Shown: positions 32,057-60,377, counted from the first letter of the stretch. The stretch: DNA of 64,000 bases from Escherichia coli (GCA_025336685.1 GCA_025336685.1_4717.1), one strand, 5' to 3'. Notes: generated by a model not told the origin, from the sequence alone. Translations and numbers: made by a program.

Positions 32057-34279
32057 TCAGTTAGTCTGAACAGGCAGCTTGATGTTTTCGGTGTAGACCT
32101 TACGCAGGTTCACAACGTTAATCAGACCCAGCAGCGGGCAGTTGTTAACGAAGCGGCAGCGAGGCTGAACCATGGTTTCTTTAGAAACCTGACCGTTACG
32201 GGTAACCTGAGCAACAGATACCAGTTCCGGTACGTACAGGAACATACCGAAGGTCAGCGGATCCGGAGAACCCTGGATACCACGAGACAGGGTCACGAAG
32301 ATCTTATCACGCAGCAGAACGTTCGGGTTATCTACAACCACGAAGTTGAAGCTTACACCAACGGTACGGAAATCACCATCGGTCTGCAGGAACTGCGGGA
32401 TGTAGTTGTCAGTTGCTACCACGCAACGCGGTTTCTCATCAGCGTTGGAAGACAGCAGCTGCAGAGCTGGCTGATAACCAGACTCGGAGTACATGCGATA
32501 TGCCATCTCACGAATCACGTTCATGATCGCAGCGGACACTTCAGCACGACGTTCTGCAGTGGTGGTGCCCTGAACAGATTTCGCCAGGTCCAGATTGATT
32601 TCTTCGAACCACGGACGGATCAGGTAACGACCGAAACCTTCGATCTGGATGTCACCGAACTGACGGAAGCGAGAGGTCGCAACCGCTTTCAGTGCATCTT
32701 TGTAGCTGAACAGTTTCTCAACCATCAGGTTGTCGAAACGTGCGTTAGCAGCTTGGATCAGAACGTCCAGGTCAGCAGCGTTTTCTTCCCAATCCAGCGG
32801 ACGAGGAATGGAGAACGGAGCCAGCAGGCCGATTGCATAACGCTCTTGCTTCATGTTGAAGTCAAGGTGTTTACCACGTTCACGACGGTTGCTGTTGTTA
32901 CGGCGAATACGCAGTTCGTAACCAACCAGTTTGAAGCTCAGGTCGTCAGCCAGGTCTTTAAATTCTTGGCTCTTACGCGGCTGTTCGATGTTGTCCTGAT
33001 CAACCAGGCGATACAGTTCAGCGTTAGCACCGTTAACACGCAGACCTGCTTTCTCTACGTTGGAAGAACCGTAAACTTCGATAGCCAGCTGAGCAGCAGA
33101 TTTCGCATCGATGATGTCCTGCAGCGCTTCGGCTTTCGCACCTTTAACGTCAACGGTGTTCTCATCAACGAAGATGGAGTGGGTGTCGAACGCCAGGGTC
33201 ATTTTGCGGAAGTCGCCTTCCAGGGATTTCTGGAAACCGTTGGTAATCAGACCGGATACGTCGAACGGAACGTAAGAGGTCTTGCTGTGCTTGGCTGATT
33301 TGATTTCCACCAGGATTTTGGTCAGCGTGATCTGAGCATCCAGCGCATCGGTGTTGTCGCTGTAACCGTTAGCCAGAATGCTATCGTCTTCAGCGATACC
33401 GATCATGTCGATCAGTTTATCAACAGCCAGGTAAGACGTTTTGTAAGTTACGCCTTTAATCTCGATGTCGCGCGGAGCAACGATAGTTTTGTCAACGAAG
33501 TACTGCGCGTTAGCATCGTCGGCACGATAGATCGGATGCAGATCGGTCACGTCGTTGGACAGAACGTCGTTGTACATGAACGCATCCAGCAGCGGACGAC
33601 GTACCCAATCAGCCGGAGTACCGTCAGCGTTACGACGCAGGTGGTTGAACACCAGCGGACGACGGAAAGATACGTCGTAACCGATCTGGTTCGGAGCCAG
33701 AACGATGGTGTTGTACAGTTCGTTACCCATGCGGCTCAGACGAGAAGCCTTCACGTTGAACACAACGGAGTACGGCATCATGTCACGCAGTTCTTTCTGG
33801 TCGTAGGACAGCTGAACCAGTTCTTCAGATTCGCAACCGCAGGAATCAGCAGCCATCATGACGAAGTTAGAGCTGTCAACTTCACGGCCAGACGGAGTGG
33901 TGCTGATGTTCATGGAACGTGCTTGTTTAGCATATTCTACCGGGTTGCCATGAGCCAGCATGATCAGTGCTGCTGCACGAGCCTGCTGTGCGTTCATGGT
34001 GAACAGCTGTTCTTCAATACGCTGCTTCTCTTCCGGAGTGGTGGTTTCGAAGCCCAGCATGGACAGAACCGGTTCTTCTGCTTTACGGATGTCGCTGCTG
34101 AAGCTCTTAACATCCATATCGTTAACCAGTTTGTCCATGGATTTGAAATCAACCTTAGAAGCAGATTCCATAGACAGGAAGGTGTTCTCCAGACCTTTGT
34201 CTGCTGGTTTGCTACCATTAGCGGTCAGGAACTGGCGAGTGGCCGCGACCTGTTGGCTAAGAAGGGTTTTATCATTCAT
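32057..34279 (-). CDS. major virion structural protein (major capsid protein or tail sheath; capsid favoured)
   Basis: 740 aa, ATG with AAAGGA RBS; strongest codon bias in the window; size typical of jumbo-phage capsid or sheath proteins; identity not verifiable without a search. Confidence 0.8.
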   Translation of the reverse strand: MNDKTLLSQQVAATRQFLTANGSKPADKGLENTFLSMESASKVDFKSMDKLVNDMDVKSFSSDIRKAEEPVLSMLGFETTTPEEKQRIEEQLFTMNAQQARAAALIMLAHGNPVEYAKQARSMNISTTPSGREVDSSNFVMMAADSCGCESEELVQLSYDQKELRDMMPYSVVFNVKASRLSRMGNELYNTIVLAPNQIGYDVSFRRPLVFNHLRRNADGTPADWVRRPLLDAFMYNDVLSNDVTDLHPIYRADDANAQYFVDKTIVAPRDIEIKGVTYKTSYLAVDKLIDMIGIAEDDSILANGYSDNTDALDAQITLTKILVEIKSAKHSKTSYVPFDVSGLITNGFQKSLEGDFRKMTLAFDTHSIFVDENTVDVKGAKAEALQDIIDAKSAAQLAIEVYGSSNVEKAGLRVNGANAELYRLVDQDNIEQPRKSQEFKDLADDLSFKLVGYELRIRRNNSNRRERGKHLDFNMKQERYAIGLLAPFSIPRPLDWEENAADLDVLIQAANARFDNLMVEKLFSYKDALKAVATSRFRQFGDIQIEGFGRYLIRPWFEEINLDLAKSVQGTTTAERRAEVSAAIMNVIREMAYRMYSESGYQPALQLLSSNADEKPRCVVATDNYIPQFLQTDGDFRTVGVSFNFVVVDNPNVLLRDKIFVTLSRGIQGSPDPLTFGMFLYVPELVSVAQVTRNGQVSKETMVQPRCRFVNNCPLLGLINVVNLRKVYTENIKLPVQTN

Positions 34280-44967: not shown

Positions 44968-45343
44968 CGGTGTCGTCCTCGCTAATTTCACCATATCCTT
45001 GTTGTCGATATCCGGTATAATGAATCAGACTGCTCTGTAGAAGCTCTTTAACGAGCCCTAGACGCGTTTTATCTGCTTCATTGGACGTTTCCATTAATGT
45101 TTCTATTTCGTTGTTTAAAACAGCGTATAGCGCTTCTAACGGCAATCCTTGGATGATTGGTTTGCTGGTGCCTTCTGGCAATGCCGCAACAGGAATCTGC
45201 ACGACGGTTTCACGCGCGGTATGCGGGTTAATACGACAAATGTACATACCTGGTACTGAATGTCGCGGACATACCGCTACCAAGCATGTCTGTTGTTGCG
45301 CACCGTTAAGTGCGAGGGGTAGAAATTTTGCTTCACGTGTCAT
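44960..45343 (-). CDS. hypothetical protein (127 aa)
   Basis: ATG with AGGAA RBS. Confidence 0.55.
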   Translation of the reverse strand: MTREAKFLPLALNGAQQQTCLVAVCPRHSVPGMYICRINPHTARETVVQIPVAALPEGTSKPIIQGLPLEALYAVLNNEIETLMETSNEADKTRLGLVKELLQSSLIHYTGYRQQGYGEISEDDTDA

Positions 45344-45431
45344 CGCAGATTCCTGTTTGAAAGATAAGATATCACATGATGGTCGACAGCATAAAGCCCA
45401 CCCCGAAGGGCGGGCTGTTTATGCGTACGGG

Positions 45432-48400
45432 TTACTTGTAGGCACCACAATGTGCTTTGATGAGGAAAAGCACCGCTTGCATCGGTTTATTGAACTGTTG
45501 CCATAACGTCAATGCCGGATGGAACAACCAATCTTCCAGGCCAAGAACAATACCGTAGTTAACGACATTATTAACATCGTTCTCAACGTTGAGTTCGCTA
45601 TCCAGGAATTTATCGATTGAACGCAGGGCCTGCATGGCGTTGTCGGCAATAAGCCACGCTTCATGCGCTTCACGAGCCGCACGCAGCAATGCTTCCAGTT
45701 CGCCGGTGCTGGCTACCGGTAACTCCTCACTGGTGAGGTCGTCAGAAACCGTAAACTGACGGTTGATACCAGTGTAGATCCACTGCATCAGTTTCGCTGC
45801 TTCCTCGTTCGGGTTGTTACGCGTTGTCGCATAGGTCGCGCTCATTTTCACGATATGCGTTTCACCAAGATACGCTTTGGACCCAACGCCTTTACGATCG
45901 CTGTCTTTCCACGGTTGTACGGTAGCGACCATGAGCTTATCCCATTTCTGAATAGGAATACGCTTCAGACCAACAACCGATCCGGCGGATGTTTCGGACT
46001 GGTTGCTCTTCCGCACTTCGCTGAGCTCACGATCGATAGCAACGATTAATTCACGCGTCATGTTACCAAGCATTTTGATTTCACCCAACGCAGCGATGAG
46101 CTTCTTCACATCGGTAATAGGTTCACCACCGATGGTAAGATGACGGATGAAACGTTTCAGAATAATCCGTTCTGCTGCTGGGTTACCACGACGCGCTTTA
46201 GCCAACGCTTGCTGTGTTTCGGCGAACAGCTTATCCCATGGAGCCGTAGCGGCGGTATAGTAACGGTGGTTGGTTTCAATCCAGTTACCGATACGGTTGA
46301 CCGCACTCTTAACGGTATCCATGAACCCTTCCATCGCAATTTCGGTGGCTTCGACGTTACCCTGGAAGTTATCAGGACCGATCTCGCGTGCCGCTACCAG
46401 AATACCTTCCACTGCACTCACCGCGTGACGACCGATAGCCAGATTTCGCTGCGCTTCTTCAGCACGCTCAACGAATTCCACTACCGCAGGATCGTCAACG
46501 ATTTCCGCCTCGGCAACAACACGTGTACCTGCATCGCCTTCCAGTGTCTCGATAGTGACAACCGGATCGTTTTCACCAGCAACATCCTGGTACTCTTCCT
46601 GTTTGAGTTCGCCGTTATCGGCCGCTGCGACAGCGGTGAGTATACGGACGGTAACATCACCGAGTTCTTTCGCAGCGAATCCGTAGACGGTACATGCTGT
46701 TGTCGCAAAGTTCATCAGTGTGCGTGTGCGTTTAACGATGTAGCCAACGCCGTAGTCACTACCGTTCTTATCGATGTCGCGGATTAACCGTTCAGCTGTC
46801 TCCTGAAGTTGTGTAGCTGCTTTCAGAAGGTCTTCGTCAAACAGTTTCGTTGACGCATCGATCAGCATATCGACGCTAACGTTAGACGGTACGGCATCAT
46901 CCTGCTGTTTCATGGCGCTAAGTTCATCACGGAACTTACGAATACCGTCTAAAGCGGCGTCGGCGCTATGTCCGAACGCGGCCACGCCAGACATTGTTGT
47001 TGCTGTCAGCATGTCCGTATCAGCGTTTGGACTTTCGCCTTCTTTAAGATCCTTCAGCTGGTCGAAGAACTTACGGGATGCTTCAGCGATACGTTTGCTG
47101 TCTTTTACCGCGTTTACGATTTTATCAACCGATTTAGCGTCGTTCGCAAGCAGCGTGTCGAGTTTGTTCCATTCGATGTCGACTTTCTTTTCATCCGAAG
47201 TATTACTCGGTGGAGGAAGCAGTTTCATCACTGGTGCTGTGCGTTGTTCTTTGGTGAGCTTACCAGCCTTCTCTTCGATTTTCTTTTTATTAACACCGAA
47301 AAGTTTTCTTAGGCGTGCCACGATTGCTTTTAAGAACTTCACAACCGCTTCGTAAACCGATTTCAGAATCTGTTTAAAGCGACCTGGCTGCTTTTCCCCG
47401 TCTTCCAGATTGAGATCGCTATTTAGTGCGATATCAAGCTGTTTGTACGATTCCATGATGTATTCGTCTTTGATTTCAGGACGAATCTCGAAGCTTTCCA
47501 TCGGACCCTCAGCCGGACGGAATTCCATTTTCAGTTCGCCTTGCAGAGTAGGGTCGACAATGGCGATAGCTTCACCCTGACCATCAGCGTTAAAGCGCTC
47601 AGCGTAACGAGTACGACGAACAATAACACTCTTATCCCCATCAAGACGACGTACCACCATGGTGCCAGGAATGTACGGTTGTTCTGTTTCAATGACGGTT
47701 ACATCTGTTTCACCTTCACCGAGAATAACAGAAGTGCGCTGTTCAACAACAGGAACATCTAATACACCGCGGGCTTCCAGCTCTTGATGAATTTCGAACG
47801 ACTCTTGTTTCAGATCTTCATCTTCTTCGTTTTCGTCGTCTTCATCGTCACCTTTGGTGGTTTTGGTGTCGGTAGCATCAGCATCCGTGTCTGCGTTGGT
47901 AGCTTCTTCGGACGCAGGTTCGGTGGTGCCGTCCTCGGTAGGCGTTTCATCAGCGTTATCGACGTCAACATCACCTTGCAGTTCTGTTTCCTGAGCAACT
48001 GCTTCGGCTTTCTGCTCACCGGTGTTACCGTCATTAGCGTCGACAGCAGGTTGTTCGTCAGCGACGGTATCTTCAACCTTTTCTACTTTCTCCACGACAC
48101 GTTTAATCACGGTGACTTTGATGGGTTCTTCCGTTGTTTTGGTTTCTGGTGTTGCGTCGGCTACCGCAGGTGCTGTTTCAACAACAGGTTCTGCTTTTTC
48201 CGGTTCGACGACACTACCTTTAACACCTTCGGTGGTTTCTGCAGGTTGCGCTGCCTGTTCGATTTGTGCCGGATTGGTCGGATCGATGGCATTAGCCGCA
48301 TCCTGAATCTTGTTCTTCAGGTTGTCACGGTCAGCGCTAACGGTCGGGTCATTGGTCACTTTCGGTGCCGGTGTTTCGGTCGGCGCGTTTGCCGGATACG

Positions 48401-48797
48401 GGTTCTTCGGCTCTTCACCAGGTGCGGTTGGTACCGCGATCAGAACGAACGGTTGAACATCGTTACCGTCTTCCATGGTCACGCCACCGTTGCTCGGCGT
48501 GAAACGGATTCGCAAGCTACCATCAATAGGACGGGTAACAATAACAGCACGTACGACATCCTCACCGTTTTCATCCGTGCTACGAATCACACGAACGGCG
48601 TCATCAACAGTAGCCCCTTCCTCGAGCGTATCTGATTCGATCGTCGCTTCGATGCTGTCTGGTCGTGCCGCTGTAGGTAATGCGATCACTTGCTCTTCTT
48701 TATCGGTAGAAAGCGTTGCTTTGACTTCGATAGGTGTATCGCCGCTTTCCAGGTTAAGATGCGACTTACGCATCAGATCAGCTAACGATTTTTTCAT
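45432..48797 (-). CDS. very large virion-type protein with acidic T/P/E/A-rich low-complexity N-terminal third
   Basis: 1121 aa, ATG with AGAGGA RBS; residues about 120-330 low complexity (PTETPAPKVTNDPTV..., ...GDDEDDENEEDEDL...). Confidence 0.8.
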   Translation of the reverse strand: MKKSLADLMRKSHLNLESGDTPIEVKATLSTDKEEQVIALPTAARPDSIEATIESDTLEEGATVDDAVRVIRSTDENGEDVVRAVIVTRPIDGSLRIRFTPSNGGVTMEDGNDVQPFVLIAVPTAPGEEPKNPYPANAPTETPAPKVTNDPTVSADRDNLKNKIQDAANAIDPTNPAQIEQAAQPAETTEGVKGSVVEPEKAEPVVETAPAVADATPETKTTEEPIKVTVIKRVVEKVEKVEDTVADEQPAVDANDGNTGEQKAEAVAQETELQGDVDVDNADETPTEDGTTEPASEEATNADTDADATDTKTTKGDDEDDENEEDEDLKQESFEIHQELEARGVLDVPVVEQRTSVILGEGETDVTVIETEQPYIPGTMVVRRLDGDKSVIVRRTRYAERFNADGQGEAIAIVDPTLQGELKMEFRPAEGPMESFEIRPEIKDEYIMESYKQLDIALNSDLNLEDGEKQPGRFKQILKSVYEAVVKFLKAIVARLRKLFGVNKKKIEEKAGKLTKEQRTAPVMKLLPPPSNTSDEKKVDIEWNKLDTLLANDAKSVDKIVNAVKDSKRIAEASRKFFDQLKDLKEGESPNADTDMLTATTMSGVAAFGHSADAALDGIRKFRDELSAMKQQDDAVPSNVSVDMLIDASTKLFDEDLLKAATQLQETAERLIRDIDKNGSDYGVGYIVKRTRTLMNFATTACTVYGFAAKELGDVTVRILTAVAAADNGELKQEEYQDVAGENDPVVTIETLEGDAGTRVVAEAEIVDDPAVVEFVERAEEAQRNLAIGRHAVSAVEGILVAAREIGPDNFQGNVEATEIAMEGFMDTVKSAVNRIGNWIETNHRYYTAATAPWDKLFAETQQALAKARRGNPAAERIILKRFIRHLTIGGEPITDVKKLIAALGEIKMLGNMTRELIVAIDRELSEVRKSNQSETSAGSVVGLKRIPIQKWDKLMVATVQPWKDSDRKGVGSKAYLGETHIVKMSATYATTRNNPNEEAAKLMQWIYTGINRQFTVSDDLTSEELPVASTGELEALLRAAREAHEAWLIADNAMQALRSIDKFLDSELNVENDVNNVVNYGIVLGLEDWLFHPALTLWQQFNKPMQAVLFLIKAHCGAYK

Positions 48798-48812
48798 AAA
48801 GCGTTATTCCTC

Positions 48813-49919
48813 TTAAAAGTAATATTTCAGCGCCTCGCGAGAGACATCAAGCATAGCCGCCGTTGAATTCGTAAAGAACTCGGCATAGCCCACAAGCGGC
48901 ACCTTGATCCACGCGGTATACGCTGTAAGGTATCGAGAAAGGGCTACCATAGCATCATCAGAAGCAGTAGTAACTGACAACTGACCTTGTTGACGATAAA
49001 CGTCGTTAAGTTTCGCTTGTAGATTCCCTGCAATTTCGAGTAACTCGTTGGCGTACTTTTTACGATGGTAACTAACCAGCAAATCAACGCCCGTATTCAC
49101 AGACTCGAGCAACACACCAACTTGTTCTAATGTTGGCATTGTAACCACCATATCCCGTTCAATGGACGGCACATCCTGGACTTCAAACCGTGCGGATTGA
49201 ATAGCGAGGGATTGTTGAATTGAACCAGAACCTGAGGTGGTAACCTGATCGAGTCGTAGCGTACGGTTGCCCAGTAACGTTACGTTGACAAGTCTCGATT
49301 CGTTCAGCGTACTGTAGACTTTATGCAATAACGTATACGCATCACGATTAATCACATCGATTAATGCGGTATCCGTCTGTTTTAAGATAATGTCGAGTGC
49401 TCTATCTAACGTATTAGCGAACTGCTTGAAATCATCACGGAATGACGAAGACAAGAGATATTCGGCGATTGCCAAATTCTGTTTGTATAGCGTATTCCCG
49501 GTTGTGAAATCGAACCCAAAACTGTTCCCATACCGTAGGTGCGGAGCCAACGTCGACGTAGCTTCGAAGCTTTGCGCGATAGGTTTACGACCAACGGCTT
49601 TTGTGTAGTGACGGCGGATGTTACTGAGTTCGAGTTGTAGTGCGCGACTACGATCGATAAACCGTGCGATAAACGCAGTAATGTTCCGCAACGTTGTCCA
49701 GATTGCATCGATGATAGCTTTGATGATTTTCATCGCAAGCTGATTGTACGATTCCATCGTGAGGAGATCAGCACTTTCTGTGGTATAACCGGTCGTCGGA
49801 ATACCGCCCGCTTGCTGATAAATAAGCTGATGAATTTGTCGTTGCGTTGCTGTCTCTGGCACAGGTAATGTCTTTAACAAGCTTAACGCTTGAATCTGTC
49901 CGTCATAGGTCTGCGGCAT
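48813..49919 (-). CDS. head internal (inner-body-like) protein candidate, paralogue family D
   Basis: ORF track 48813..49970; ATG at M18 has GAGGAA RBS; shares central helix-rich block with 49903..55396 paralogues. Confidence 0.65.
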   Translation of the reverse strand: MPQTYDGQIQALSLLKTLPVPETATQRQIHQLIYQQAGGIPTTGYTTESADLLTMESYNQLAMKIIKAIIDAIWTTLRNITAFIARFIDRSRALQLELSNIRRHYTKAVGRKPIAQSFEATSTLAPHLRYGNSFGFDFTTGNTLYKQNLAIAEYLLSSSFRDDFKQFANTLDRALDIILKQTDTALIDVINRDAYTLLHKVYSTLNESRLVNVTLLGNRTLRLDQVTTSGSGSIQQSLAIQSARFEVQDVPSIERDMVVTMPTLEQVGVLLESVNTGVDLLVSYHRKKYANELLEIAGNLQAKLNDVYRQQGQLSVTTASDDAMVALSRYLTAYTAWIKVPLVGYAEFFTNSTAAMLDVSREALKYYF

Positions 49920-51204
49920 TGCTGGTTTCCTCAAGTTCGAGATGCGCATCAAGATAATCATTAAGACCATCGATGACGTCGCAGACAGTTAACAGGAATC
50001 GGGCAAAAGCGACCGCCTGGAAGCCGACGACGTTACGCGCGATACCTACACGTTGAACGATAGCGGATGATGCGGTATCGTTGTTATCCATCTGTTGTAG
50101 TAAACGCTCGTAAGGTTGAATCCATTCGTCCTGGTCGGCAAGGCTTGCTTCAAGACAACGTTTAAATTCCAACTGTCGTAGCGTAGACCATAATGTACTT
50201 AATGCGTTGATGATCGCGTTGGTTCCGTCGATAACATCGTTTAACGGTAAGAAACGGAATCCGTCTTTTGCTGATTGGAAAGGTACAGCTTCCCACACAA
50301 CGCTGAACTGCGTTCCTGATGTGTCTTCGATGTTGTGTAATTTAAGGTAGGAAGCACCAACAGGAACGTCAACGACCAGATCGTCTGTTCCGGTAGGTGT
50401 TAACGGCTTCTCGCATAACGCATCGTTGATGACCTCGAGAATATTCTCCCAACAGGCTTCGTTTTCTGCAGCGATACCTTCTTTGTTATCCACTGATGGT
50501 GCTTTTAGTAGCTGCATTAATAACGGATCGAGTTGACGATGCCATGTTGCGAGTATCCCTGTGTTCGTTACGATGTTTTCTGCGGTTTGTTGTAAATCAG
50601 CAATACTGCTTACCGCACCGCCTTTCGGATGAAGATATCGCCAATTGTAAGGAAAGTTCTCCCAGAATGCGTTATCTTCATTAACATCGTATTCAGAAAT
50701 AGTTTTCAACGCAGCCGCTTTCTTTAATAACGGCTTCACCTGACGAACGAATCGACGATAACAGCGATTGCAGATATCGATCGCGTAGCGGTATAACTCG
50801 TTCATGTAAAGCCATAATGCACGGGTTGCTTCTTTTGCGGTCTTGTCAAAACTTTCCATGTTCAAGCTCATCCCGCTGGAAGTTTCCTCTTCCATACCTT
50901 CGATGATGTGGTTTGGATCCATCCCCATCCCGGCTGCTGCGGTCGATGCGATATGTTTGATCGTGCTGATATCGCGTTCTTCAGCCTCAGTCATATCTGG
51001 GATAATATCCAACCTGAGTTTATTTAATGTTTGAAGGTGTTGTTCACCTTCTTTCATCACCATGTTTGTTTCGTCGATTGAGTGAAACTGGTTCTCAATA
51101 TTACTGGCATCGAGAATATTGCCAGCGATACCGAACGATTCTACAGGTTCATCATCAATCCCTTGAAACAACGATGTCATGGGTTGTTGCAACACGTTTT
51201 CCAT
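49903..51204 (-). CDS. head internal (inner-body-like) protein candidate, paralogue family D
   Basis: 433 aa, ATG with AGGAG RBS; DISTIKHIASTAAAGMGMDP block. Confidence 0.7.
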   Translation of the reverse strand: MENVLQQPMTSLFQGIDDEPVESFGIAGNILDASNIENQFHSIDETNMVMKEGEQHLQTLNKLRLDIIPDMTEAEERDISTIKHIASTAAAGMGMDPNHIIEGMEEETSSGMSLNMESFDKTAKEATRALWLYMNELYRYAIDICNRCYRRFVRQVKPLLKKAAALKTISEYDVNEDNAFWENFPYNWRYLHPKGGAVSSIADLQQTAENIVTNTGILATWHRQLDPLLMQLLKAPSVDNKEGIAAENEACWENILEVINDALCEKPLTPTGTDDLVVDVPVGASYLKLHNIEDTSGTQFSVVWEAVPFQSAKDGFRFLPLNDVIDGTNAIINALSTLWSTLRQLEFKRCLEASLADQDEWIQPYERLLQQMDNNDTASSAIVQRVGIARNVVGFQAVAFARFLLTVCDVIDGLNDYLDAHLELEETSNAADL

Positions 51205-51310
51205 TTGGGACTCCTACGTAGGGAAATCTTGGCGGGTGATCATGTCCGCCATTTACCTTCTGAACCGTTGATTCAGAAGTCAAAAGATAACCGGATACCG
51301 GCGTCATAAA

Positions 51311-51342
51311 CCTTCCTCCTTCCCTTACGGGTTGGAGGAAGG
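51311..51342 (-). terminator. conserved hairpin element, copy
   Basis: CCTTCCTCC-TT-CCC-TTAC-GGG-TT-GGAGGAAGG 3' of minus gene 51353..52642. Confidence 0.6.
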
Positions 51343-51352
51343 GATAGGGTGA

Positions 51353-52642
51353 TTATGCTTTTTCGGTCGCTGCGTTGAAGTATTTCGCAGCAGCAAATAC
51401 AGCATCCGCATACTGACGTACAGAGGCACGGAGGATCTTAGTTCCTAATACAGAGCTTAAACGAGCCATTTCTGTTACAGCTGTGATATAAGGACGTACG
51501 GTTTCACGATCAGCCTCAGGTAACTTGTCGAGCATTTCGCCCCACTTCGTTTTGATCTGCATTCCGTTGAGTTTAGCGTCTCGTCCTACAGAGCGCGCCA
51601 AACTTTCAACTTTATGCAAATACGTCGGTTCCACCATACGGAATGCCTTCAGATATGCAGTCAATGCGCTTTTCAGCTCATTCCCATCGTGGAAAATATT
51701 CGCATTTTCGATTTTATCTGTTACGGTGTCAACAACTTCAATATGAACATCCTTCACCAAAGCACATGCTTTAACGACATCCTTCTCTTTTTCTAGCGCA
51801 TCCAACCCTTTAACGACATATTGTTTTCCACCACTTTCTGGAAGTCTGAACGCCCTCAGTGCGGCTTTAGTGGCCTGAAGATACTCGTCTAGGACACGAT
51901 CAAGCGTTGTTAAATCAGTTAGGACATTAATGTCGTAGTTGATATCGCCGATCTTAGTAAATAAGAAATCTGATATCGTCGCACTTGCAGCCAGTTGTTC
52001 GATATGTTTGCTAACGGATGCCGCATCAACAGATTTTGCGTTCGGGAACATATTAACCATATTCCCGGTAGGCTTCTCTAGTTGTTTGATCTGACGTTCC
52101 CCTTTATTGACTTCGGATGCAATTTTGGTGATCTCAGCATAAGCCAGAACGAGATTCTTGAACAACATCTGGAACAGTTTGAACAGTTGCTCAGCAATAT
52201 TTGCAATGATTACCCAAACTGCGTATAACGCTTGTGCTGCGCGTTCTTTAAAGCCTTCCAGTACGATAGCCTGTCCTTCCACTAATTTATCATTAGCCTG
52301 GAACATGTCTTCATCAGACATCCCCAGGTTTGCTGCTGATGTCGAAGCGATCTGACGGATAAGTGCGACGTCGCTCACACGTGCTTCCGAGATCGTTGGT
52401 GCGATCATGTACGCTGTATCTTCCAGCGTTGCTGAGGTACGCACTGCAATTTCAGCCAGTTCGCTGGATTCATCGATTGTCTCGTCGGTATGTCGAATCA
52501 CCAACTCAACTTCACCCTCTTCAATTTCTGCGTTAGGATCGTGTTGCTCCGTCGGAATCGTCGCGAGAAGATCTTCGGCGCTGAGCAATGCGAGTTCGAA
52601 TGCGTTTTTATTGACGTTGTCAAAAAGAGAAATACGTGCCAT
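51353..52642 (-). CDS. head internal (inner-body-like) protein candidate, paralogue family D
   Basis: 429 aa, ATG with AAGGAA RBS; SDVALIRQIASTSAANLGMSDEDMF block; acidic N-terminus with repeated (A/L)xE. Confidence 0.75.
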   Translation of the reverse strand: MARISLFDNVNKNAFELALLSAEDLLATIPTEQHDPNAEIEEGEVELVIRHTDETIDESSELAEIAVRTSATLEDTAYMIAPTISEARVSDVALIRQIASTSAANLGMSDEDMFQANDKLVEGQAIVLEGFKERAAQALYAVWVIIANIAEQLFKLFQMLFKNLVLAYAEITKIASEVNKGERQIKQLEKPTGNMVNMFPNAKSVDAASVSKHIEQLAASATISDFLFTKIGDINYDINVLTDLTTLDRVLDEYLQATKAALRAFRLPESGGKQYVVKGLDALEKEKDVVKACALVKDVHIEVVDTVTDKIENANIFHDGNELKSALTAYLKAFRMVEPTYLHKVESLARSVGRDAKLNGMQIKTKWGEMLDKLPEADRETVRPYITAVTEMARLSSVLGTKILRASVRQYADAVFAAAKYFNAATEKA

Positions 52643-52651
52643 GTTAGTTCC

Positions 52652-53968
52652 TTAACCTTTGGTATAGGCTTTAACGAGAGTGTTGATAAATGAAGTCAGT
52701 GCGCGAAGATACTGGTACGCGAACTGGTTTTCAATACGGTTCTCTTTACCGCAAAGCAGAATCGCGCGCTTAACGAGCTTAGGATAGATCTCGATGTACG
52801 GTTGGTAGCTTGCATCAAAATTCTGCTCGTTGAAGCGTTTCATGGTGATTTCCTGGATACGCTCCATGGTGCGAATTTTATTGCGAGAGAATATCTCAGA
52901 GAAAGCACGTCCGCGTTTTGTTACCATCAACAGATCTTTCGCGAACGTCAGTTGTCGAACGCTACGCAAATCGTCAGGTGTTGGTAGGACGTACGTTTCT
53001 GGATCGTTATCCCATTCAACATCTTCAACGACAATATCCAAGTCGAGGTAACGTTTAACAGCATCGATGATATTGTCTTTTGACGCATCGAATTCTTTCA
53101 AGAAGACTGCGCCGTTGATGTAGCGGATACGTTTTCCGGAAACCGTTGGGGTGATAACGTCAGCACCTTCCACAGAACCACGATTTTCCAGCGTCGATTT
53201 GACAGCGTTCAAGAAAGTCAGATAATCAACGGGAAGTTTTTCAACCTTATCTAAATGGAAGTCGATGATGTTTAATCCTAACCCATCAATAACTGAATAA
53301 CCGTCCGATTTAAGGAACATCTGATTGAAGGTATCGATGTTGCTTTTCAGCGTGTCTACACCACCAACGTTGTTACGGTTAGGGAAAAGTGTTCGCCACT
53401 CTGCTTTAAACGCGACCTCTTTATTTTCCGTGTATTTGCCTTTGGGCATTTGTTCGAGGGCTGCAATAGCTTTCTGAAAATTGCGTGTCTCGTCATAAAC
53501 AAGATGGGTAAGCTTCTCGAAGGCTGCTGCCAGAGTCAGGGCAATATCAACGATGATATCCCAGATCTTTTTCATGGCTTTTACAACGGTGTCTTTAAAC
53601 CCTTCAACAACCAAAGCTTCTCCAATCTCAACACGGTCGGTTGGAGTCAGCAATGCTTCGGAGGGCAAGCCCAAAGCAATCGATGCGGATTCTTGAATGT
53701 TACGAACCAACGCAACATCACTGTAGTTAGCCGATTCGATAGTCGGGGCAACATCAAAACTGATTTCCCGCAGTGCTTCAACAGCAGGGAAAGCACGATC
53801 AAGTGCATCTTCATGTTCGTCGATTGTCGCCAAACGTAACTCAACACCATCAGCATCGATGACTTCAGCGGTAGGCTCCACAGCAAGCGCTTCAGCAACA
53901 ATAGGATCTTTTTCAAACGCTTCGAGGCTGATATCGCCTTGGGTCGCAAATAGCGGTATGTGTACCAT
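52652..53968 (-). CDS. head internal (inner-body-like) protein candidate, paralogue family D
   Basis: ORF track 52652..53992 (TTG); ATG at M9 has GGAGA RBS; SDVALVRNIQESASIALGLPSEALL block. Confidence 0.7.
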   Translation of the reverse strand: MVHIPLFATQGDISLEAFEKDPIVAEALAVEPTAEVIDADGVELRLATIDEHEDALDRAFPAVEALREISFDVAPTIESANYSDVALVRNIQESASIALGLPSEALLTPTDRVEIGEALVVEGFKDTVVKAMKKIWDIIVDIALTLAAAFEKLTHLVYDETRNFQKAIAALEQMPKGKYTENKEVAFKAEWRTLFPNRNNVGGVDTLKSNIDTFNQMFLKSDGYSVIDGLGLNIIDFHLDKVEKLPVDYLTFLNAVKSTLENRGSVEGADVITPTVSGKRIRYINGAVFLKEFDASKDNIIDAVKRYLDLDIVVEDVEWDNDPETYVLPTPDDLRSVRQLTFAKDLLMVTKRGRAFSEIFSRNKIRTMERIQEITMKRFNEQNFDASYQPYIEIYPKLVKRAILLCGKENRIENQFAYQYLRALTSFINTLVKAYTKG

Positions 53969-54016
53969 GTGTTGTCTCCAGTAATGATTCAAAAGATAAA
54001 CCTGAGCGGCATAGAA

Positions 54017-54048
54017 CCCTCTCCCAACCCGTAAGGGAAGGGAGAGGG
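54017..54048 (-). terminator. conserved hairpin element, copy
   Basis: CCCTCTCCC-AA-CCC-GTAA-GGG-AA-GGGAGAGGG 3' of minus gene 54071..55396. Confidence 0.6.
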
Positions 54049-54070
54049 AATATGTCAGTTTATTAACTGA

Positions 54071-55396
54071 TTACTGCTGTGCTGCGTCAGCCGGTTTCTC
54101 GGCCGCCTGGCCGCCGTACTCTTTCAGCATTTTAGCAGCGCCATCCAGGACAGCGTTACCTGCCTGAACACCGTATTTCATCAGACCAGTCTGTGGGTTC
54201 ACGTAGCAGGAACGTGCGTCTTTCAGTGCAGACAGTACAGCTTGAACACGCTGTTTTTCCTGAGCGGAAACTTCGCCTTTCTTAGACAGATCAGCTTCCA
54301 TTGCGTCGCCGAATTTAACAGCGTCTTTGAAGCCCTGGGATTTCTTACCGATGTTGCCTTTCAGCGCCAGCAGTTTGTCAGCCAGTACTTCAACACCGCT
54401 AACCGCAGCGGCCAGCTGATTCAGGGACAGGACGGTAGCTTCAACTTCTTTTGCTTCACCGGAGCGTTCCCAGGTTACTTTACCATCGTTGGCTTTGAAA
54501 CCCCAGCCCGCAGGACCAGCAACGTCAGCAATCGCCGGAGCGTTCAGTTTATCGGCGTACTCGGTGTGAGATTTAGCAACAACAGTGTTGACGAATTTAT
54601 CAGCACGATCGTCAGCAGCCTTCATTGCTTTCTCGAAGGTGTCGGCGATTTTGGTCGCACCGGTAACCAGATCGTCGCCACCGATGTAACCTGAAATGCC
54701 ACTACCCAGGGTAACTTTGGCATTTTTAGCAGCGCCTTTACGCTTGGCGATCATTTCTTTCAGTTTAGCAGCGCGTGCTTTCAGTTTGGTCGCGCCGTCG
54801 AAGATGCGATCCATGAACTTCACGAAGGTTTCCCAGGAAGTTTTCAGGAAGTTCTTGATGGTTGCCCACAGTTTCTGCCACCATTTTTGTTCTTCCAGGA
54901 AGATCATGTTGGTTGCATCGTAACGGGAAGCAGAACCACCGAAGCTTTCGAAGGACGGCATGGTTTCCGGCAGTTTGAAACCGATAGTACCACACAGGCG
55001 TTTCAGGTTACGCATGTGTTCCTGAGCGGTTTGTGCAGACATACCACCGTCTTTCAGGTAGCTTTCGGTTGCAACAACGGTTTCCGTCAGTTCATCCATG
55101 GCTTCATCCATGGCTTCTGCGGTTTCGTCGTCTTTTGCAATTTCGATAACAACAGCGTCAACCTGCTCGATATCGCCACGAACTTCGATAGCCAGTTCGG
55201 TTTCAGCTGCAGTATCTTCAGCGATTTCAGCGCGTTCGGTCAGTTCAGCTACAACGGTTTCATCTGCTGCTGCTGCGGCATCAGCTGCCGGTTCTGCTTC
55301 AACGGTTGCCGCTGCATCCGGATCGATCTCAGCAGCCAGTTGAACCAGCTGTGCGTTAGATGGATTTGCGACAAGACGATCAAAAATAGAAGGCAT
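54071..55396 (-). CDS. abundant Ala/Glu-rich head protein candidate (family D-like; scaffold or internal protein)
   Basis: 441 aa, ATG with AAAGGAA RBS; strong codon bias; N-terminal 100 aa acidic with many AxE motifs. Confidence 0.75.
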   Translation of the reverse strand: MPSIFDRLVANPSNAQLVQLAAEIDPDAAATVEAEPAADAAAAADETVVAELTERAEIAEDTAAETELAIEVRGDIEQVDAVVIEIAKDDETAEAMDEAMDELTETVVATESYLKDGGMSAQTAQEHMRNLKRLCGTIGFKLPETMPSFESFGGSASRYDATNMIFLEEQKWWQKLWATIKNFLKTSWETFVKFMDRIFDGATKLKARAAKLKEMIAKRKGAAKNAKVTLGSGISGYIGGDDLVTGATKIADTFEKAMKAADDRADKFVNTVVAKSHTEYADKLNAPAIADVAGPAGWGFKANDGKVTWERSGEAKEVEATVLSLNQLAAAVSGVEVLADKLLALKGNIGKKSQGFKDAVKFGDAMEADLSKKGEVSAQEKQRVQAVLSALKDARSCYVNPQTGLMKYGVQAGNAVLDGAAKMLKEYGGQAAEKPADAAQQ

Positions 55397-55420
55397 AATT
55401 TGTTTCCTTTACAATAAATT

Positions 55421-55436
55421 GCACATTAGCTAATGT
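55421..55436. promoter_or_regulatory. perfect 16-bp palindrome upstream of 54071..55396
   Basis: CACATTAGCTAATGTG about 25 nt upstream of the start codon, adjacent to a second imperfect hairpin (GCTTAAGTG...CACTTAAAAGC). Confidence 0.35.
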
Positions 55437-55460
55437 GGCTTAAGTGAGCCATTAGCCCAC

Positions 55461-55991
55461 TTAAAAGCCCTTAAAACCCGGTGCCATAGGTTGCCCAAAC
55501 ACCGCATTCAAAGTACATATGATGTCCTGGATGCCATTGTCCCAATGGAGCCAAGTACGCACCATCTCTTCGTCTGACAACGTGATATAACTCATAAGTT
55601 TACCGCTGCTTTCCAGACGTTGGTGCGAACTTAGCGACTGACGATCTGACCAGTTATCAATCAGTTGACCAGCGATCTGAACGTTCGTGTCTCGTCTACC
55701 TGTGTGAATGAACCGCAGTGTATCACGGATAAACTCCAGACTGGTGAAGTTCAGATTTGGGTTATGGCTGTTCATTTCCACCCAGTCGGTAATGGGGTAC
55801 ATCAAACGATAAAGGGTAGAAAGAACCTGACGCTCGTATTTCCAGTCATCGAGAGGAGTACCGTCGACCAGACGCTGATACAAACTAACAACGTCGCGAT
55901 CGTAGTTCTCCTGACGTTTTACGCCGTTAACCGGAAATCCGAAGAATCCGGTACCGTATAACGTTAAAGGGACGTCACGAAGTGCACTCAT
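55461..55991 (-). CDS. hypothetical protein (about 176 aa)
   Basis: ORF track 55461..56123; ATG at M45 forms ATGA overlap with the stop of the upstream ORF; sequence before it overlaps 55988..56464 out of frame. Confidence 0.6.
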   Translation of the reverse strand: MSALRDVPLTLYGTGFFGFPVNGVKRQENYDRDVVSLYQRLVDGTPLDDWKYERQVLSTLYRLMYPITDWVEMNSHNPNLNFTSLEFIRDTLRFIHTGRRDTNVQIAGQLIDNWSDRQSLSSHQRLESSGKLMSYITLSDEEMVRTWLHWDNGIQDIICTLNAVFGQPMAPGFKGF

Positions 55992-56464
55992 ACAGCCGCC
56001 TCTTCTTTTCGTTTGATGTCGTAACGAAGTTTCTTCAGTCGCTCTTCGTGATATTCGATCTGCTGCTGGATTTTTGGATCGTTGCCCGCATTCTGTTGCT
56101 TTTGCTTCAGTGACAAAATCCAATACTCCAACGCTTGGGCTTCTTCTTTGGCTGCTTGTAACGACGCTTCTTCACGTTCGCTGCGCCAGATGCGATAACG
56201 GTAAATAAGCGTGTTGGTCATTTGAGTGTCGGACCATGAACCCATGCGCATCGGGTCAGTATTACCCGCGTTGTACAACCCATTACCAACACCGTCTTCA
56301 TCAGAAACCACAACATCCGGGATTTTATCCAACCCAGCAAGGATCTGTTGTTTCTGTCCACACAGCACCTCGGTGGCAATGGCGAAACCGTACATGTTGG
56401 CGGTCAGGTAAGCAATCTCGTTTTTGGTGAAGAACTCACCAAGTGCTTTATCACCACCTGGCAT
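55988..56464 (-). CDS. hypothetical protein, 3' segment of a possibly interrupted gene
   Basis: 158 aa from the first ATG; the same frame stays open and strongly codon-optimised for 66 more codons upstream (to in-frame TAG at about 56663) with no canonical start. Confidence 0.5.
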   Translation of the reverse strand: MPGGDKALGEFFTKNEIAYLTANMYGFAIATEVLCGQKQQILAGLDKIPDVVVSDEDGVGNGLYNAGNTDPMRMGSWSDTQMTNTLIYRYRIWRSEREEASLQAAKEEAQALEYWILSLKQKQQNAGNDPKIQQQIEYHEERLKKLRYDIKRKEEAAV

Positions 56465-56662
56465 GCTTTCGCAGATGACTGTCGCACGAAGCAGCGTACG
56501 AGCGTAGCTAACGTAGAAGCCCAGGGACTCAACAAGACGTACCAGAGCGGCTTCTTTGAAACTCAGACCGTCGGCAGCAACATCGATTTCCAGGTTTTTG
56601 TTAACACGTTTAACAATTTCTGGAATCAGATCAACAGCATTACGTAGCGCTATGAACGTTTT

Positions 56663-57132
56663 CTACCCAGCTTCCAGAGCGAACGCGGGTTAAACGCTGA
56701 TGCAGATCCTTGTCAGCGAGTTTCCATAAGGCGCTTTCCCTTTTGGAGAAGCGGAGCGGATGTCTCGTAGGCGGAATCGCGGTGTTGTTGATTTCGTCAC
56801 GGATCGATTCAAGTGCGTCAGCAACACCGGCAGGTTTAAAAGCGGCTTCAAACTGCGAATGAATTCTTTAAAATCAATTGCCATGAGTGAGCAATTCCGC
56901 GCTATTTCGAACAGGTTACGTGTGTTAACGAATCTGTGGGACGTTTCCGGTACGGAGGCCTGGAGGATCGTCAGAAGATCAACCCGAGGTTGACGAACTG
57001 TTGATTTTTCCAGCTGTTTGAAGCTTACTGTGGTCCCTTGATCCAAGCTGTGGAAATAGAAGGTCACCATCTCTTCAGCTTGTCGATGATGATCAACTGC
57101 ATTGCAAGGGCTTCAGCCATGACTTTCACGTG
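56663..57132 (-). other. 470-bp interval interrupting coding sequence (frame-disrupted gene, intervening sequence, or recoding region)
   Basis: Lies between the TAA stop of 57133..58020 and the in-frame TAG preceding the optimised 55988..56662 frame; contains a 126-aa ORF (56690..57070) with poor codons and a second open frame entered by -1 shift at T_TTA_AAC (about 56834..56840). Confidence 0.4.
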
Positions 57133-58020
57133 TTATAGCCGACAAACGACGTCCGATTCATGCCTGATGGCTTCCTGGTTAGCCTTAGAGATGATATAGG
57201 TGGAGGCGATTGCTCCAGAAGAAGGGATCTTTGTGCTCGCTGCAGCTTTTGCGGCATTGATGCGCGCAGCATTAACAGCCTTGCGGATACCCTCTTTATC
57301 CATACGTGAGATTCGTTTGTGTTCACGAACCAGGTCACTAAGCAGGATCATGTCGCTCCAGAAAGACAGCTCACCCGCCATCATGCGATGCCAACGTGCT
57401 CGCCAGGTGTTCTGTGGGCCGCCGATCGCTAAAATCGACGCAAGCACTTCCGCTGGTGAACTTGCAATACGCATGCTGATGTTCAATGGCATTTTCATCG
57501 TTGCCTGACCATCGGTCAGCGTCACGGTTAAGAACTTGCCGGTGACCGCGTTTGCATCTTTGTTCAGCAATTCGATCGCTGCGTCGCTGGCCCCAACATC
57601 GAGGCTATTTTTTTGTTTCCCCAGCAGGTTGAATCCTTTGTCATCAAGGAAAACAAGGCTTTTGCTATCCGCACTTTCCAGTGCTAATTTAACAGCCTTA
57701 TCCATCATGTTAGCGTTACGGTTTGGATTCACACGACCCAGCGTTTTATCGACACTGATATTACCCACCTGCATGATGGTGTTCAACGCCAGTAAATAGA
57801 ACCCGGTATACATATTTTCAGCGGTGCGCATGCAGTTGCCTAACGCATTGCGTGCGTCGCTATAATACAACTCACGTTCAAAGATCAACGGCGCGATAAC
57901 GCGTGAAGGTTGTGAGAGTTCAACCAGCGAACCTGGCTGGATAAGTTTATTAACTTCGTAGACTTTAGCGATACCGGACGCAACAACGTTAACAGCGTCG
58001 GCAATTTCTGATGCTACCAT
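57133..58020 (-). CDS. hypothetical protein (295 aa), possible 5' part of an interrupted gene
   Basis: ATG with AAGGA RBS; good codon usage. Confidence 0.7.
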   Translation of the reverse strand: MVASEIADAVNVVASGIAKVYEVNKLIQPGSLVELSQPSRVIAPLIFERELYYSDARNALGNCMRTAENMYTGFYLLALNTIMQVGNISVDKTLGRVNPNRNANMMDKAVKLALESADSKSLVFLDDKGFNLLGKQKNSLDVGASDAAIELLNKDANAVTGKFLTVTLTDGQATMKMPLNISMRIASSPAEVLASILAIGGPQNTWRARWHRMMAGELSFWSDMILLSDLVREHKRISRMDKEGIRKAVNAARINAAKAAASTKIPSSGAIASTYIISKANQEAIRHESDVVCRL

Positions 58021-58054: not shown

Positions 58055-58264
58055 ATGTCTAATTACTACGACCAAGCTATTCAAACCATTCAGGAAGATA
58101 ATGCGTCGTTAACACCCGAAGCTGTGGAGGCAGCGGGCAATGCGGTGTTATTCACTGATTCAGATTGGGCAATGGCGCGGAAGAATATTCGTACCAGTGT
58201 CGGTCAAGGGACATACGGACAGTATCGCCAGACGGTATCGGAATGTGTCACCTATTCCGGGTAA
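58055..58264 (+). CDS. small ORF (about 69 aa), possible N-terminal part of a frameshift fusion with 58140..59258
   Basis: ORF track 58022..58264; ATG at M12 has AAAGGAAAG RBS; good codon usage; ends GGG TAA. Confidence 0.5.
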   Translation: MSNYYDQAIQTIQEDNASLTPEAVEAAGNAVLFTDSDWAMARKNIRTSVGQGTYGQYRQTVSECVTYSG

Positions 58265-59261: not shown

Positions 59262-60377
59262 ATGAGCGTAACCAACAAAGATCTTGCTGAACAGCTCAAT
59301 CGCTATATGCTTTCACCCATTGAAATGCAGGCTGTTGCAAGCGATATGATCCGTTTGGCTTCCGATGGTGAGTTAACCCTGGTTGACCCCAGCTGTCCGT
59401 TTGTTTATCTGCTGGAGGTTGCAACGGCGACGGCTGCGAACCAGAACGCGCGGGATGAATCCCGTGTTCGCGAACTGTATCCGAAACTTGCAACCAACTG
59501 GAGCCAGCTCTATCGTTGGATGTATGACGAGTCGTACGTCGGACGTTTCGCAATGCCGGGTAAAACGGAAATCATTTATTCGTTAGGGTATCAGGAAATC
59601 CTCGATCGTGCTGTAGAGATTCCAAACACCGCCGCATCCGATGATTTAAGCCGTTCTTACAGCCGTAAGTTAGTGATACCACGTACGACGGTGTTTACGG
59701 TAGCCGGAATGGATTTCGGGCTGCATTATCCCATCGAAATCCAAGTGCAGGCGCACGACCAGATACGCGTTGTTTATAACACTGATAACATCAGCCCGCT
59801 GCAAACCTTGGAGAGTAACCAAGTTGAGTATGGTGTTGTTCGTGTAAAAGCGGGTAAAGTGTTGGTGATGCGTATCCCACTGTTCCAGTTTAAAACGCTG
59901 GTAAAAGATGTGCCGTTTAACAGCGTTCACGGGATGAACAGCAGCATTACCTTCGAAGATCAGTTTTACCATTGTCGTGCGTACATGTCGTCGGATAACG
60001 ATACCTGGACGGAGATAGCGACAACCCACAGCCAGCAGATCTACGATCCGTTAACACCGACCATCGCGTTACAAGTAGAAGGGAACAAACTTAACTGGCG
60101 TGTTCCTGAAATTTATTTGTCTCAAGGTACGATGGATAAAAGCACCATTCGACTCGAGGTGTTGACGACGAAAGGGAAAATCAGCGTCGACCCGTCTGAT
60201 TACGACGTGACTGATTGGAAAGATAATTACATCGATCTGTCACCAAAAGCCGAACAGAAATACAGTGCGCCGCTAAGTGCGTTCAACATTAAAGGGATTT
60301 ATAGTGAAGGGGCGTTGTCGGGTGGACGATCTGCGTTAACATTCGAGGAACAACGTGAACGCGTTATGGCGAAGTGA
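59262..60377 (+). CDS. hypothetical protein (371 aa)
   Basis: ATG with GAGGGA RBS. Confidence 0.75.
   Translation: MSVTNKDLAEQLNRYMLSPIEMQAVASDMIRLASDGELTLVDPSCPFVYLLEVATATAANQNARDESRVRELYPKLATNWSQLYRWMYDESYVGRFAMPGKTEIIYSLGYQEILDRAVEIPNTAASDDLSRSYSRKLVIPRTTVFTVAGMDFGLHYPIEIQVQAHDQIRVVYNTDNISPLQTLESNQVEYGVVRVKAGKVLVMRIPLFQFKTLVKDVPFNSVHGMNSSITFEDQFYHCRAYMSSDNDTWTEIATTHSQQIYDPLTPTIALQVEGNKLNWRVPEIYLSQGTMDKSTIRLEVLTTKGKISVDPSDYDVTDWKDNYIDLSPKAEQKYSAPLSAFNIKGIYSEGALSGGRSALTFEEQRERVMAK

Follow-up and report, generated by a model that had tools for sequence, protein, structure and literature searches.

The locus at positions 48813–55396 of a 64,000-nucleotide stretch of DNA from Escherichia coli (GCA_025336685.1; the whole stretch is called the window below) contains a tandem array of long open reading frames (ORFs), and raises the question of what such an array encodes and how its products are handled. 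An earlier note had described five paralogous genes here and, from cleavage-site-like motifs in acidic N-terminal regions, had taken their products for internal or inner-body proteins of a phage head. Our analysis indicates that the array very probably consists of six tandem PF12699 paralogues, internal head proteins of a chimallivirus (phiKZ-like phage) orthologous to Goslar gp58, gp57, gp56, gp55, gp54 and gp53, which would act by the mechanism proposed below. The conclusion reached in the earlier note was thus right, and the reasoning behind it was weak because the density of the motifs matches amino acid composition and one member lacks both the motifs and an acidic N-terminus.

Origin and composition of the array

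At the nucleotide level, the array region shares 91.9% identity with Escherichia phage vB_EcoM_Goslar (MK327938, positions 58510–65091), a nucleus-forming jumbo phage of the family Chimalliviridae, and matched nothing besides Goslar among 50,697 phage genome records. By its sequence, the window is assigned to a close relative of Goslar. All five previously described ORFs are present, all on the minus strand, and they correspond one to one with the annotated Goslar coding sequences gp54–gp58; a sixth gene with a C-terminal PF12699-like domain, directly downstream of them in the direction of transcription, had been missed. The six genes, referred to here as A to F, are as follows (an arrow marks the bond at each candidate cleavage site):

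A: 48813..49919, minus strand; Goslar gp54 orthologue, 368 amino acids; divergent PF12699 paralogue; N-terminus of 56 amino acids, non-acidic; candidate site TME56↓SY
B: 49903..51204, minus strand; Goslar gp55 orthologue, 433 amino acids; PF12699-family paralogue; candidate site NME117↓SF
C: 51353..52642, minus strand; Goslar gp56 orthologue, 429 amino acids; PF12699-fold paralogue; candidate site VLE129↓GF; C-terminal domain a divergent allele
D: 52652..53968, minus strand; Goslar gp57 orthologue, 438 amino acids; low-copy PF12699 paralogue; candidate site VVE122↓GF
E: 54071..55396, minus strand; Goslar gp58 orthologue, 441 amino acids; dominant PF12699 internal head/ejection protein; acidic N-terminal region of ~150–168 amino acids; candidate sites SFE150↓SF and FLE168↓EQ
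F: 45432..48797, minus strand; Goslar gp53 orthologue, 1121 amino acids; long acidic N-terminal extension; C-terminal PF12699-like domain (residues ~795–1121), with candidate site AME823↓GF at the start of its helical part

Amino acid identity to the Goslar orthologues is 95–97.5% for five of the six proteins (97.5% for E and gp58) and 75.5% for C. The stop codon of B overlaps the start of A by 17 nucleotides, and D is preceded by a ribosome-binding site, GGAG, 8 nucleotides upstream of its ATG at 53968.

Membership in the PF12699 family

Two of the proteins scored above the gathering cut-off (27 bits) of Pfam family PF12699 (phiKZ_IP, phiKZ-like internal head proteins): protein E at 71.1 bits (1.3e-19) and protein D at 27.8 bits. 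Below the cut-off were a fragment of F (residues 790–1121; 25.7 bits, E-value 8.4e-6) and a nearly full-length match of A (17.1 bits, E-value 0.0034), and B and C gave no direct Pfam match to PF12699. PHROG entries described as ‘internal head protein’ were matched by E (5750 and 2497), A (12254; 0.0099) and F (12254), and the protein P0084, 96% identical to A, carries a precomputed PF12699.14 assignment.

The remaining members are connected through their similarity to one another and to remote proteins. B, C and D resemble each other in pairwise BLASTP comparisons across their N-terminal 110–200 residues (C–D 1.5e-17, B–D 5e-9, B–C 2.5e-8). The block that had been described as common to all five genes, SDVALIRQIASTSAANLG in C, SDVALVRNIQESASIALG in D and DISTIKHIASTAAAGMGMDP in B, is borne out for these three; it had also been placed centrally, and lies in fact at residues 78–110 of ~430, upstream of the putative cleavage site. 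A and E, on the other hand, have no significant BLASTP similarity to B, C and D, and comparison of shallow profiles by hhalign was likewise not significant (E-values of 0.16 for A and 0.058 for E), although the expected segment was aligned nonetheless. At the level of sequence profiles, A and E appear to join B, C and D only through the wider family.

A profile of B, C and D, run exhaustively with HMMER against 1.84 billion representative proteins, found 21 proteins. Sixteen of these are not Goslar-type orthologues, and 10 of the 16 are PF12699 members (best E-value 7.4e-42). We built a hidden Markov model (HMM) of the family from phiKZ gp92–97, SPN3US gp53/54 and 14 remote proteins, with no sequences from the window; since the 14 remote sequences had been found with the B/C/D profile, this test is independent only for A, E and F. 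Against the 123 window ORFs of at least 80 amino acids, the family HMM matched C (6.3e-31), D (1.2e-24), B (1.6e-17), E (8e-10) and A (4e-8), and no other ORF. When the five window proteins were added to the model, residues 795–1121 of F scored 26.8 bits and the next window ORF 5.7 bits. An HMM made from the eight phiKZ and SPN3US sequences alone had no match in the window. Simpler searches stayed close to home: word-based searches from C, B and A yielded nothing beyond Goslar-like orthologues (66–96% identity), and tblastn of E and C against the 50,697 phage records returned only Goslar and one weak match in a Pseudomonas phage.

The fold of C points in the same direction. Its AlphaFold model (predicted template modelling score, pTM, 0.61) comprises a disordered segment (residues 1–82) and a helical body, and in a Foldseek search of this model against BFVD the top 50 matches were all internal head or virion structural proteins of jumbo phages (best E-value 6.7e-8, TM scores 0.35–0.48), including internal head proteins of PhiEaH1, 201phi2-1, PhiPA3 and RP12. 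The model of A, made from three sequences, was too poor (predicted local distance difference test, pLDDT, 44) to be searched by fold. For the Goslar orthologues, published AlphaFold 3 models exist for all six proteins.

A separate observation concerns F, in which residues 474–731 (46605–47376) may form a second, degenerate PF12699-like module; the match (12.9 bits with a custom HMM, without Pfam or PHROG support) is unconfirmed.

Genomic neighbourhood and relation to known systems

The array lies next to a gene that anchors it to the corresponding region of other jumbo phages:

gp91-type gene upstream of E: 55461..55991, minus strand; Goslar gp59 orthologue (100% amino acid identity), phiKZ gp91 vertex-binding protein; PF25618 PhiKZ_gp91, 1.9e-46

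For the next genes beyond gp59, the Goslar annotation notes similarity to phiKZ ORF089, ORF088 and ORF087. In the phiKZ map, gp87 and gp88 occupy one strand, and the other strand carries gp89, gp90 and gp91 and then gp92–97, a run of annotated internal head proteins that closes with the long gp97. The array is placed in the same way, downstream of gp89–gp90–gp91 homologues and divergent from the homologues of gp87 and gp88. It is syntenic with phiKZ gp89–gp97 and with SPN3US gp50–gp54, where the layout of gp48–54 is alike.

In Goslar, gp53–gp58 have the same order and orientation as the genes described here, and the same hairpins follow gp58, gp56 and gp53; the two differ in the gp56 orthologue, the C-terminal two-thirds of which are another allele. 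phiKZ gp92–gp97 (with gp162 and gp163) share the Pfam family, the neighbourhood, acidic N-terminal regions and an aligned conserved Glu column, but at very low sequence identity, and BLAST finds nothing in phiKZ. The two also differ in that several phiKZ members are present at 100–200 copies, whereas the Goslar type has one dominant member, and in that an inner body has been seen in phiKZ and not in Goslar. SPN3US gp53 and gp54 (paralog family A, ejection proteins) are PF12699 members at the same syntenic position; they have long propeptides (125 and 137 residues), a strict A-x-E specificity and high copy numbers in both (>600), with two paralogues as opposed to the six found here, and SPN3US is not a member of the Goslar genus. 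Work on phiKZ and SPN3US had already established the PF12699 family and shown that its paralogues vary in number (two to seven).

The resemblance to T4 internal proteins IPI–III and Alt, which are packaged in the head, lose an N-terminal capsid-targeting peptide to the prohead protease after a Glu and are ejected with the DNA, is one of functional analogy only. None of the proteins matched a T4 internal protein family in Pfam or PHROG, and the T4 targeting sequence measures 10–20 residues and ends in L/I-x-E, as compared with 56–168 (823 in F) in the array.

Presence of the orthologues in Goslar virions

The gene cluster is of a known kind, already described in Goslar, its closest relative, and represents no new type of element. 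A 2026 preprint on the Goslar virion reports that gp53 and gp58 carry PF12699 and that gp54–57 share the fold according to AlphaFold 3, and that all six proteins were found in purified virions by liquid chromatography with tandem mass spectrometry, at ~2150 copies per virion for gp58, ~330 for gp53 and ~50–70 for gp54–57 (bioRxiv 10.64898/2026.04.21.720040). The near-identical orthologues of the array proteins are thus virion components, as the earlier note had expected. Injection into the host was reported for gp58, and for gp58 only (bioRxiv 10.64898/2026.04.21.720040). Neither N-terminal processing nor cleavage sites are treated in the preprint.

Composition of the N-terminal regions

The earlier note had described the N-termini as acidic and as dense in (A/L/V)-x-E motifs, which it had read as a cleavage signal. 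B to E are indeed strongly acidic, with net charges of −18 to −27 over the first 120 residues. A is not: its net charge in successive segments of 40 residues is 0, −1 and +5, and only 56 residues extend up to the conserved Glu described below. We compared the counts of (A/L/V)-x-E and (S/A/G)-x-E in the N-terminal regions with those in 2000 composition-preserving shuffles, and in no protein did the counts exceed the shuffled expectation (P = 0.06 to 1.0), with A and B being poor in such motifs. The motif density follows from a composition rich in Ala and Glu and is no evidence in itself, so that the reading of density as a cleavage signal was not upheld.

A conserved glutamate at the start of the helical domain

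The SPN3US prohead protease gp245 cuts after A-x-E and in this way strips gp53 of a propeptide of 125 residues and gp54 of one of 137. The mature N-termini there are AQE125↓GWKETL, (E)GWKETLKDLFER, in gp53 and ARE137↓SLWDDIK in gp54, which is also cut at AQE-124. When the six window proteins were aligned by MAFFT with SPN3US gp53/54 and phiKZ gp92–97, the mapped SPN3US sites fell in a single column that contains Glu in every sequence, phiKZ gp92–97 having S-x-E at this point. The column corresponds to TME56↓SY in A, NME117↓SF in B, VLE129↓GF in C, VVE122↓GF in D, FLE168↓EQ in E and AME823↓GF in F. With more of the residues that follow, the sites of A, B, C, D and F read TME↓SYNQ, NME↓SFDK, VLE↓GFKER, VVE↓GFKDT and AME↓GFMDT. 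A second conserved Glu column is located 13–18 residues upstream and pairs SFE150↓SF of E with AQE124↓SY of SPN3US gp54. Residue 129 of C, the conserved Glu, is where the long first helix of the folded domain starts in the model.

One conserved Glu with the pattern x-x-E↓(G/S)(F/Y), positioned where the helical domain would start, is a better argument for processing than the density of motifs. Removal of the N-terminal regions at these candidate sites is, by homology, a reasonable but unproven proposal. The residue at the P3 position is Ser in the aligned phiKZ sites and T, N, V, V, F and A in A to F, respectively.

The Goslar lineage probably has an active prohead protease that cleaves after Glu, since the Goslar major capsid protein has no density for its first 157 residues and GCE150↓S and SEE153↓L, which conform to (S/A/G)-x-E and are candidates for maturation sites, stand just upstream of the first residue modelled in Goslar (158). 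These sites are found in the major capsid protein orthologue of the window (32057–34279, minus strand, 740 amino acids).

Hairpin-TATG cassettes

The earlier note had reported a conserved hairpin directly after two of the genes, and both the sequence and RNAfold place such hairpins after the stop codons of C and E. A third, simpler hairpin closes the array after F:

Hairpin after E: 54017..54048, minus strand; CCCTCTCCC-TT-CCC-TTAC-GGG-TT-GGGAGAGGG; RNAfold −25.9 kcal/mol; TATG at 54010–54013; TTATCTTTTGA at 53989–53999
Hairpin after C: 51311..51342, minus strand; CCTTCCTCC-AA-CCC-GTAA-GGG-AA-GGAGGAAGG; RNAfold −22.8 kcal/mol; TATG at 51305–51308; TTATCTTTTGA at 51280–51290
Hairpin after F: 45395..45416, minus strand; GC-rich; AGCCCGCCC-TTCG-GGGTGGGCT; RNAfold −18.7 kcal/mol; TATG at 45390–45393; annotated as a terminator in Goslar

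At each of the three stop codons, a GC-rich hairpin lies within 16–25 nucleotides and is followed directly by T(T/C)TATG. The hairpins after E and C have an unusual design in common, in which a 2x2 internal loop separates a 9-bp stem from a 3-bp stem capped by a tetraloop. All three are kept in Goslar, with one tetraloop base differing after E, and with the stems kept and the internal loop and tetraloop differing after C. A scan of 45000–56500 at Rfam gathering thresholds found no family.

In phiKZ, the non-virion RNA polymerase has TATG as its late-promoter consensus, and transcription starts at the G. We infer that each cassette would combine a terminator with a late promoter, and that together they would split the array into the transcription units [..E], [D, C] and [B, A, F]. 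Such a split fits the ~40-fold difference in copy number between gp58 and the downstream paralogues.

Several further observations were made in connection with these elements. The same cassette, on the minus strand and with T(T/C)TATG directly downstream of the hairpin, follows the major capsid gene (T(T/C)TATG starting at ~31930) and an ORF at 4461–5354 (starting at ~4415); the stem sequences differ and the architecture is kept, and the hairpin-plus-TTTATG cassette may be a genome-wide late terminator/promoter element. The box TTATCTTTTGA stands 14–17 nucleotides downstream of TATG after C and E, with TTATCTTTCAA after F at ~45365; the box has four matches in the window at one mismatch or fewer, as compared with 1.6 expected, which alone is not significant. 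A second hairpin, TGGCGGACATGATCACCCGCCA, is located between C and B (51230–51251, minus strand), ~25 nucleotides before the start of B, and it is this hairpin, not the conserved cassette hairpin, that corresponds to the terminator annotated between the two genes in Goslar.

A divergent allele of gene C

The segment 51353–52180, which encodes the C-terminal two-thirds of C, is only 58–77% identical in nucleotide sequence to Goslar, with no indels, and its flanks are 93–99% identical. Synonymous divergence (dS) in this segment is 1.58, as compared with ~0.15 elsewhere, and the ratio of nonsynonymous to synonymous divergence (dN/dS) is 0.13; we therefore rejected positive selection on gene C, as these two values together point to replacement of an allele. 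Public assemblies contain at least three allele groups of gene C (93%, about 77% and 66% identity). It looks, from these sequence comparisons, as if the cargo domain of C was replaced by a deeply divergent allele through recombination and the N-terminal region was kept: between gp56 alleles, conservation is far higher over the N-terminal 170 residues than over the remainder (dS of 0.35 versus 1.58).

All six genes are under purifying selection (dN/dS 0.09–0.16), and the N-terminal region of gp58 has the lowest dN/dS of the array (0.03). Purifying selection and the conservation of the gp56 and gp58 N-termini fit with these regions being functional.

Elsewhere in the window, a cluster of 1–4 nucleotide indels relative to Goslar was seen at 56650–57160, in the gp60 and gp61 orthologues, and tblastn matches are split and change frame in the orthologues of gp62 and gp63 (tail-tube initiator and baseplate wedge; positions 58055–58216, 60371–60374 and 61621). 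Such differences reflect either errors of sequencing or assembly or genuine frameshifts in structural genes.

A proposed mechanism and its alternatives

The mechanism that we propose, as part of the reading given at the outset, begins with the N-terminal region, which is mostly disordered, acidic in five of the six proteins, and would target the protein into the prohead, where it may bind the inner capsid surface. A short conserved helix (the ‘SDVALIR...G’ block) would come next, and then the conserved Glu, precisely where the long first helix of the PF12699 domain is predicted to start. The prohead protease, a homologue of phiKZ gp175 and SPN3US gp245 that would be encoded outside the window, would cut after this Glu, and the freed helical domain would stay in the DNA-filled head and be ejected into the host with the genome. 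The cassettes would set the late transcription units from which the six proteins are made.

A number of points weigh against this scheme. Besides the x-E motif counts, which are those of shuffled sequence, the P3 residues of A to D (T, N, V, V) and of E (F) depart from the A/S/G-x-E rule of phiKZ and SPN3US; the sole sites in keeping with it are AME in F and, as the alternative in E, SFE150. A search of the window with SPN3US gp245 found no prohead protease gene, and no inner body is visible in Goslar by cryo-electron microscopy (cryo-EM) (bioRxiv 10.64898/2026.04.21.720040). Finally, N-terminal peptides are present in Goslar virions. The Goslar peptide data considered here run from A to ELK in alphabetical order, so that peptides starting with G, S or EQ fall outside them; the tryptic peptides that span candidate sites include LPETMPSFESFGGSASR, VEVGEALVVEGFK and LVEGQAIVLEGFK. 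Fully tryptic N-terminal peptides were found for gp58 (residues 55–72, area 4.9e3, and 115–128, area 9.2e3), weak N-terminal peptides were also present for gp55 (52–62) and gp53 (84–96, 202–220, 664–674 and 764–782), and the three testable N-terminal peptides of gp57 and one of gp56 were absent. By area, which reflects amount only roughly, those of gp58 are 13–25 times weaker than the mean gp58 peptide (~1.2e5; 1.08e7 over 87 peptides). The pattern is like that in SPN3US, in which cleavage is proven and some propeptide peptides nevertheless persist, and is not decisive.

As a side observation, the sequence IME450↓SY of F precedes residues 474–731 and is similar to TME↓SY of A; a tryptic peptide of Goslar across this point, DEYIMESYK, is absent from the covered part of the peptide table.

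The persistence of N-terminal peptides in Goslar virions bears on what becomes of the N-terminal segments. A possible refinement of the proposed mechanism, which we regard as somewhat doubtful, is that the segments are functional products in their own right, staying on the inner capsid surface after cleavage as cement- or scaffold-like elements, with the helical domains as the sole mobile cargo. There is a precedent in the phiKZ capsid structure, in which residues 14–84 of gp93 and 19–134 of gp162 form fibre-like bridges between hexamers along the inner surface; the N-terminal parts in question are those that the prohead protease gp175 releases, and the helical domains are not resolved. The survival of N-terminal peptides in Goslar virions and the conservation of the gp56 and gp58 N-termini would agree with such a role. 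However, the peptides are weak relative to those of the helical domains, and the Goslar cryo-EM work assigned no such density to gp58 or its paralogues and reports only helical density near the vertex complex that it leaves unassigned.

The same peptides could also mean that the proteins, although of the same family, are packaged at full length, with the acidic N-terminal regions as permanent parts that the prohead protease does not remove. The sequence coverage of gp58 (69.3%) exceeds the 65.9% attainable from residues 151–440 alone, and the misfit of the P3 residues in A to D and the compositional origin of the motif density would agree with a lack of cleavage. We nevertheless consider full-length packaging unlikely: the N-terminal signal of gp58 is depressed to the extent given above, SPN3US retains residual propeptide peptides despite proven cleavage, all characterised relatives (phiKZ gp93 and gp162, SPN3US gp53 and gp54) are cleaved, and the gap in capsid protein density together with GCE150 and SEE153 argues for a Glu-cutting protease that is probably active.

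A more far-reaching idea, to which we likewise attach a low probability, is that the acidic N-terminal ~150 residues of E, at ~2000 copies as against ~1600 copies of the major capsid protein, are the missing prohead scaffold or core of chimalliviruses, cut at x-x-E like T4 gp22. A to D would then be interchangeable injected effectors, with cargo domains swapped between lineages by recombination, as in C.

That the five genes form no true family, with similarity and motifs that are chance or a compositional artefact of acidic low-complexity ORFs, can be dismissed with near certainty: A and E do lack a significant BLASTP or shallow hhalign link to B, C and D, motif counts equal those of shuffled sequence and the eight-sequence phiKZ/SPN3US HMM found nothing, but the artefact is refuted by the agreement of Pfam, PHROG, remote profile matches, the independent family HMM, the fold search and synteny, by the lack of any other scoring ORF in the window, and by B–C–D E-values of 1e-8 to 1e-17 that span non-repetitive sequence.

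Implications

The picture is one of six PF12699 paralogues for which processing at one conserved Glu is proposed. The authors of the Goslar preprint regard the role of PF12699 proteins as a central unsolved question in the life cycle of chimalliviruses (bioRxiv 10.64898/2026.04.21.720040), and in nucleus-forming jumbo phages these proteins rank among the most plentiful cargo. For the Goslar lineage, the candidate sites listed above, with either SFE150↓SF or FLE168↓EQ in E and one site in each of the other five proteins, would make up a predicted set of maturation sites.

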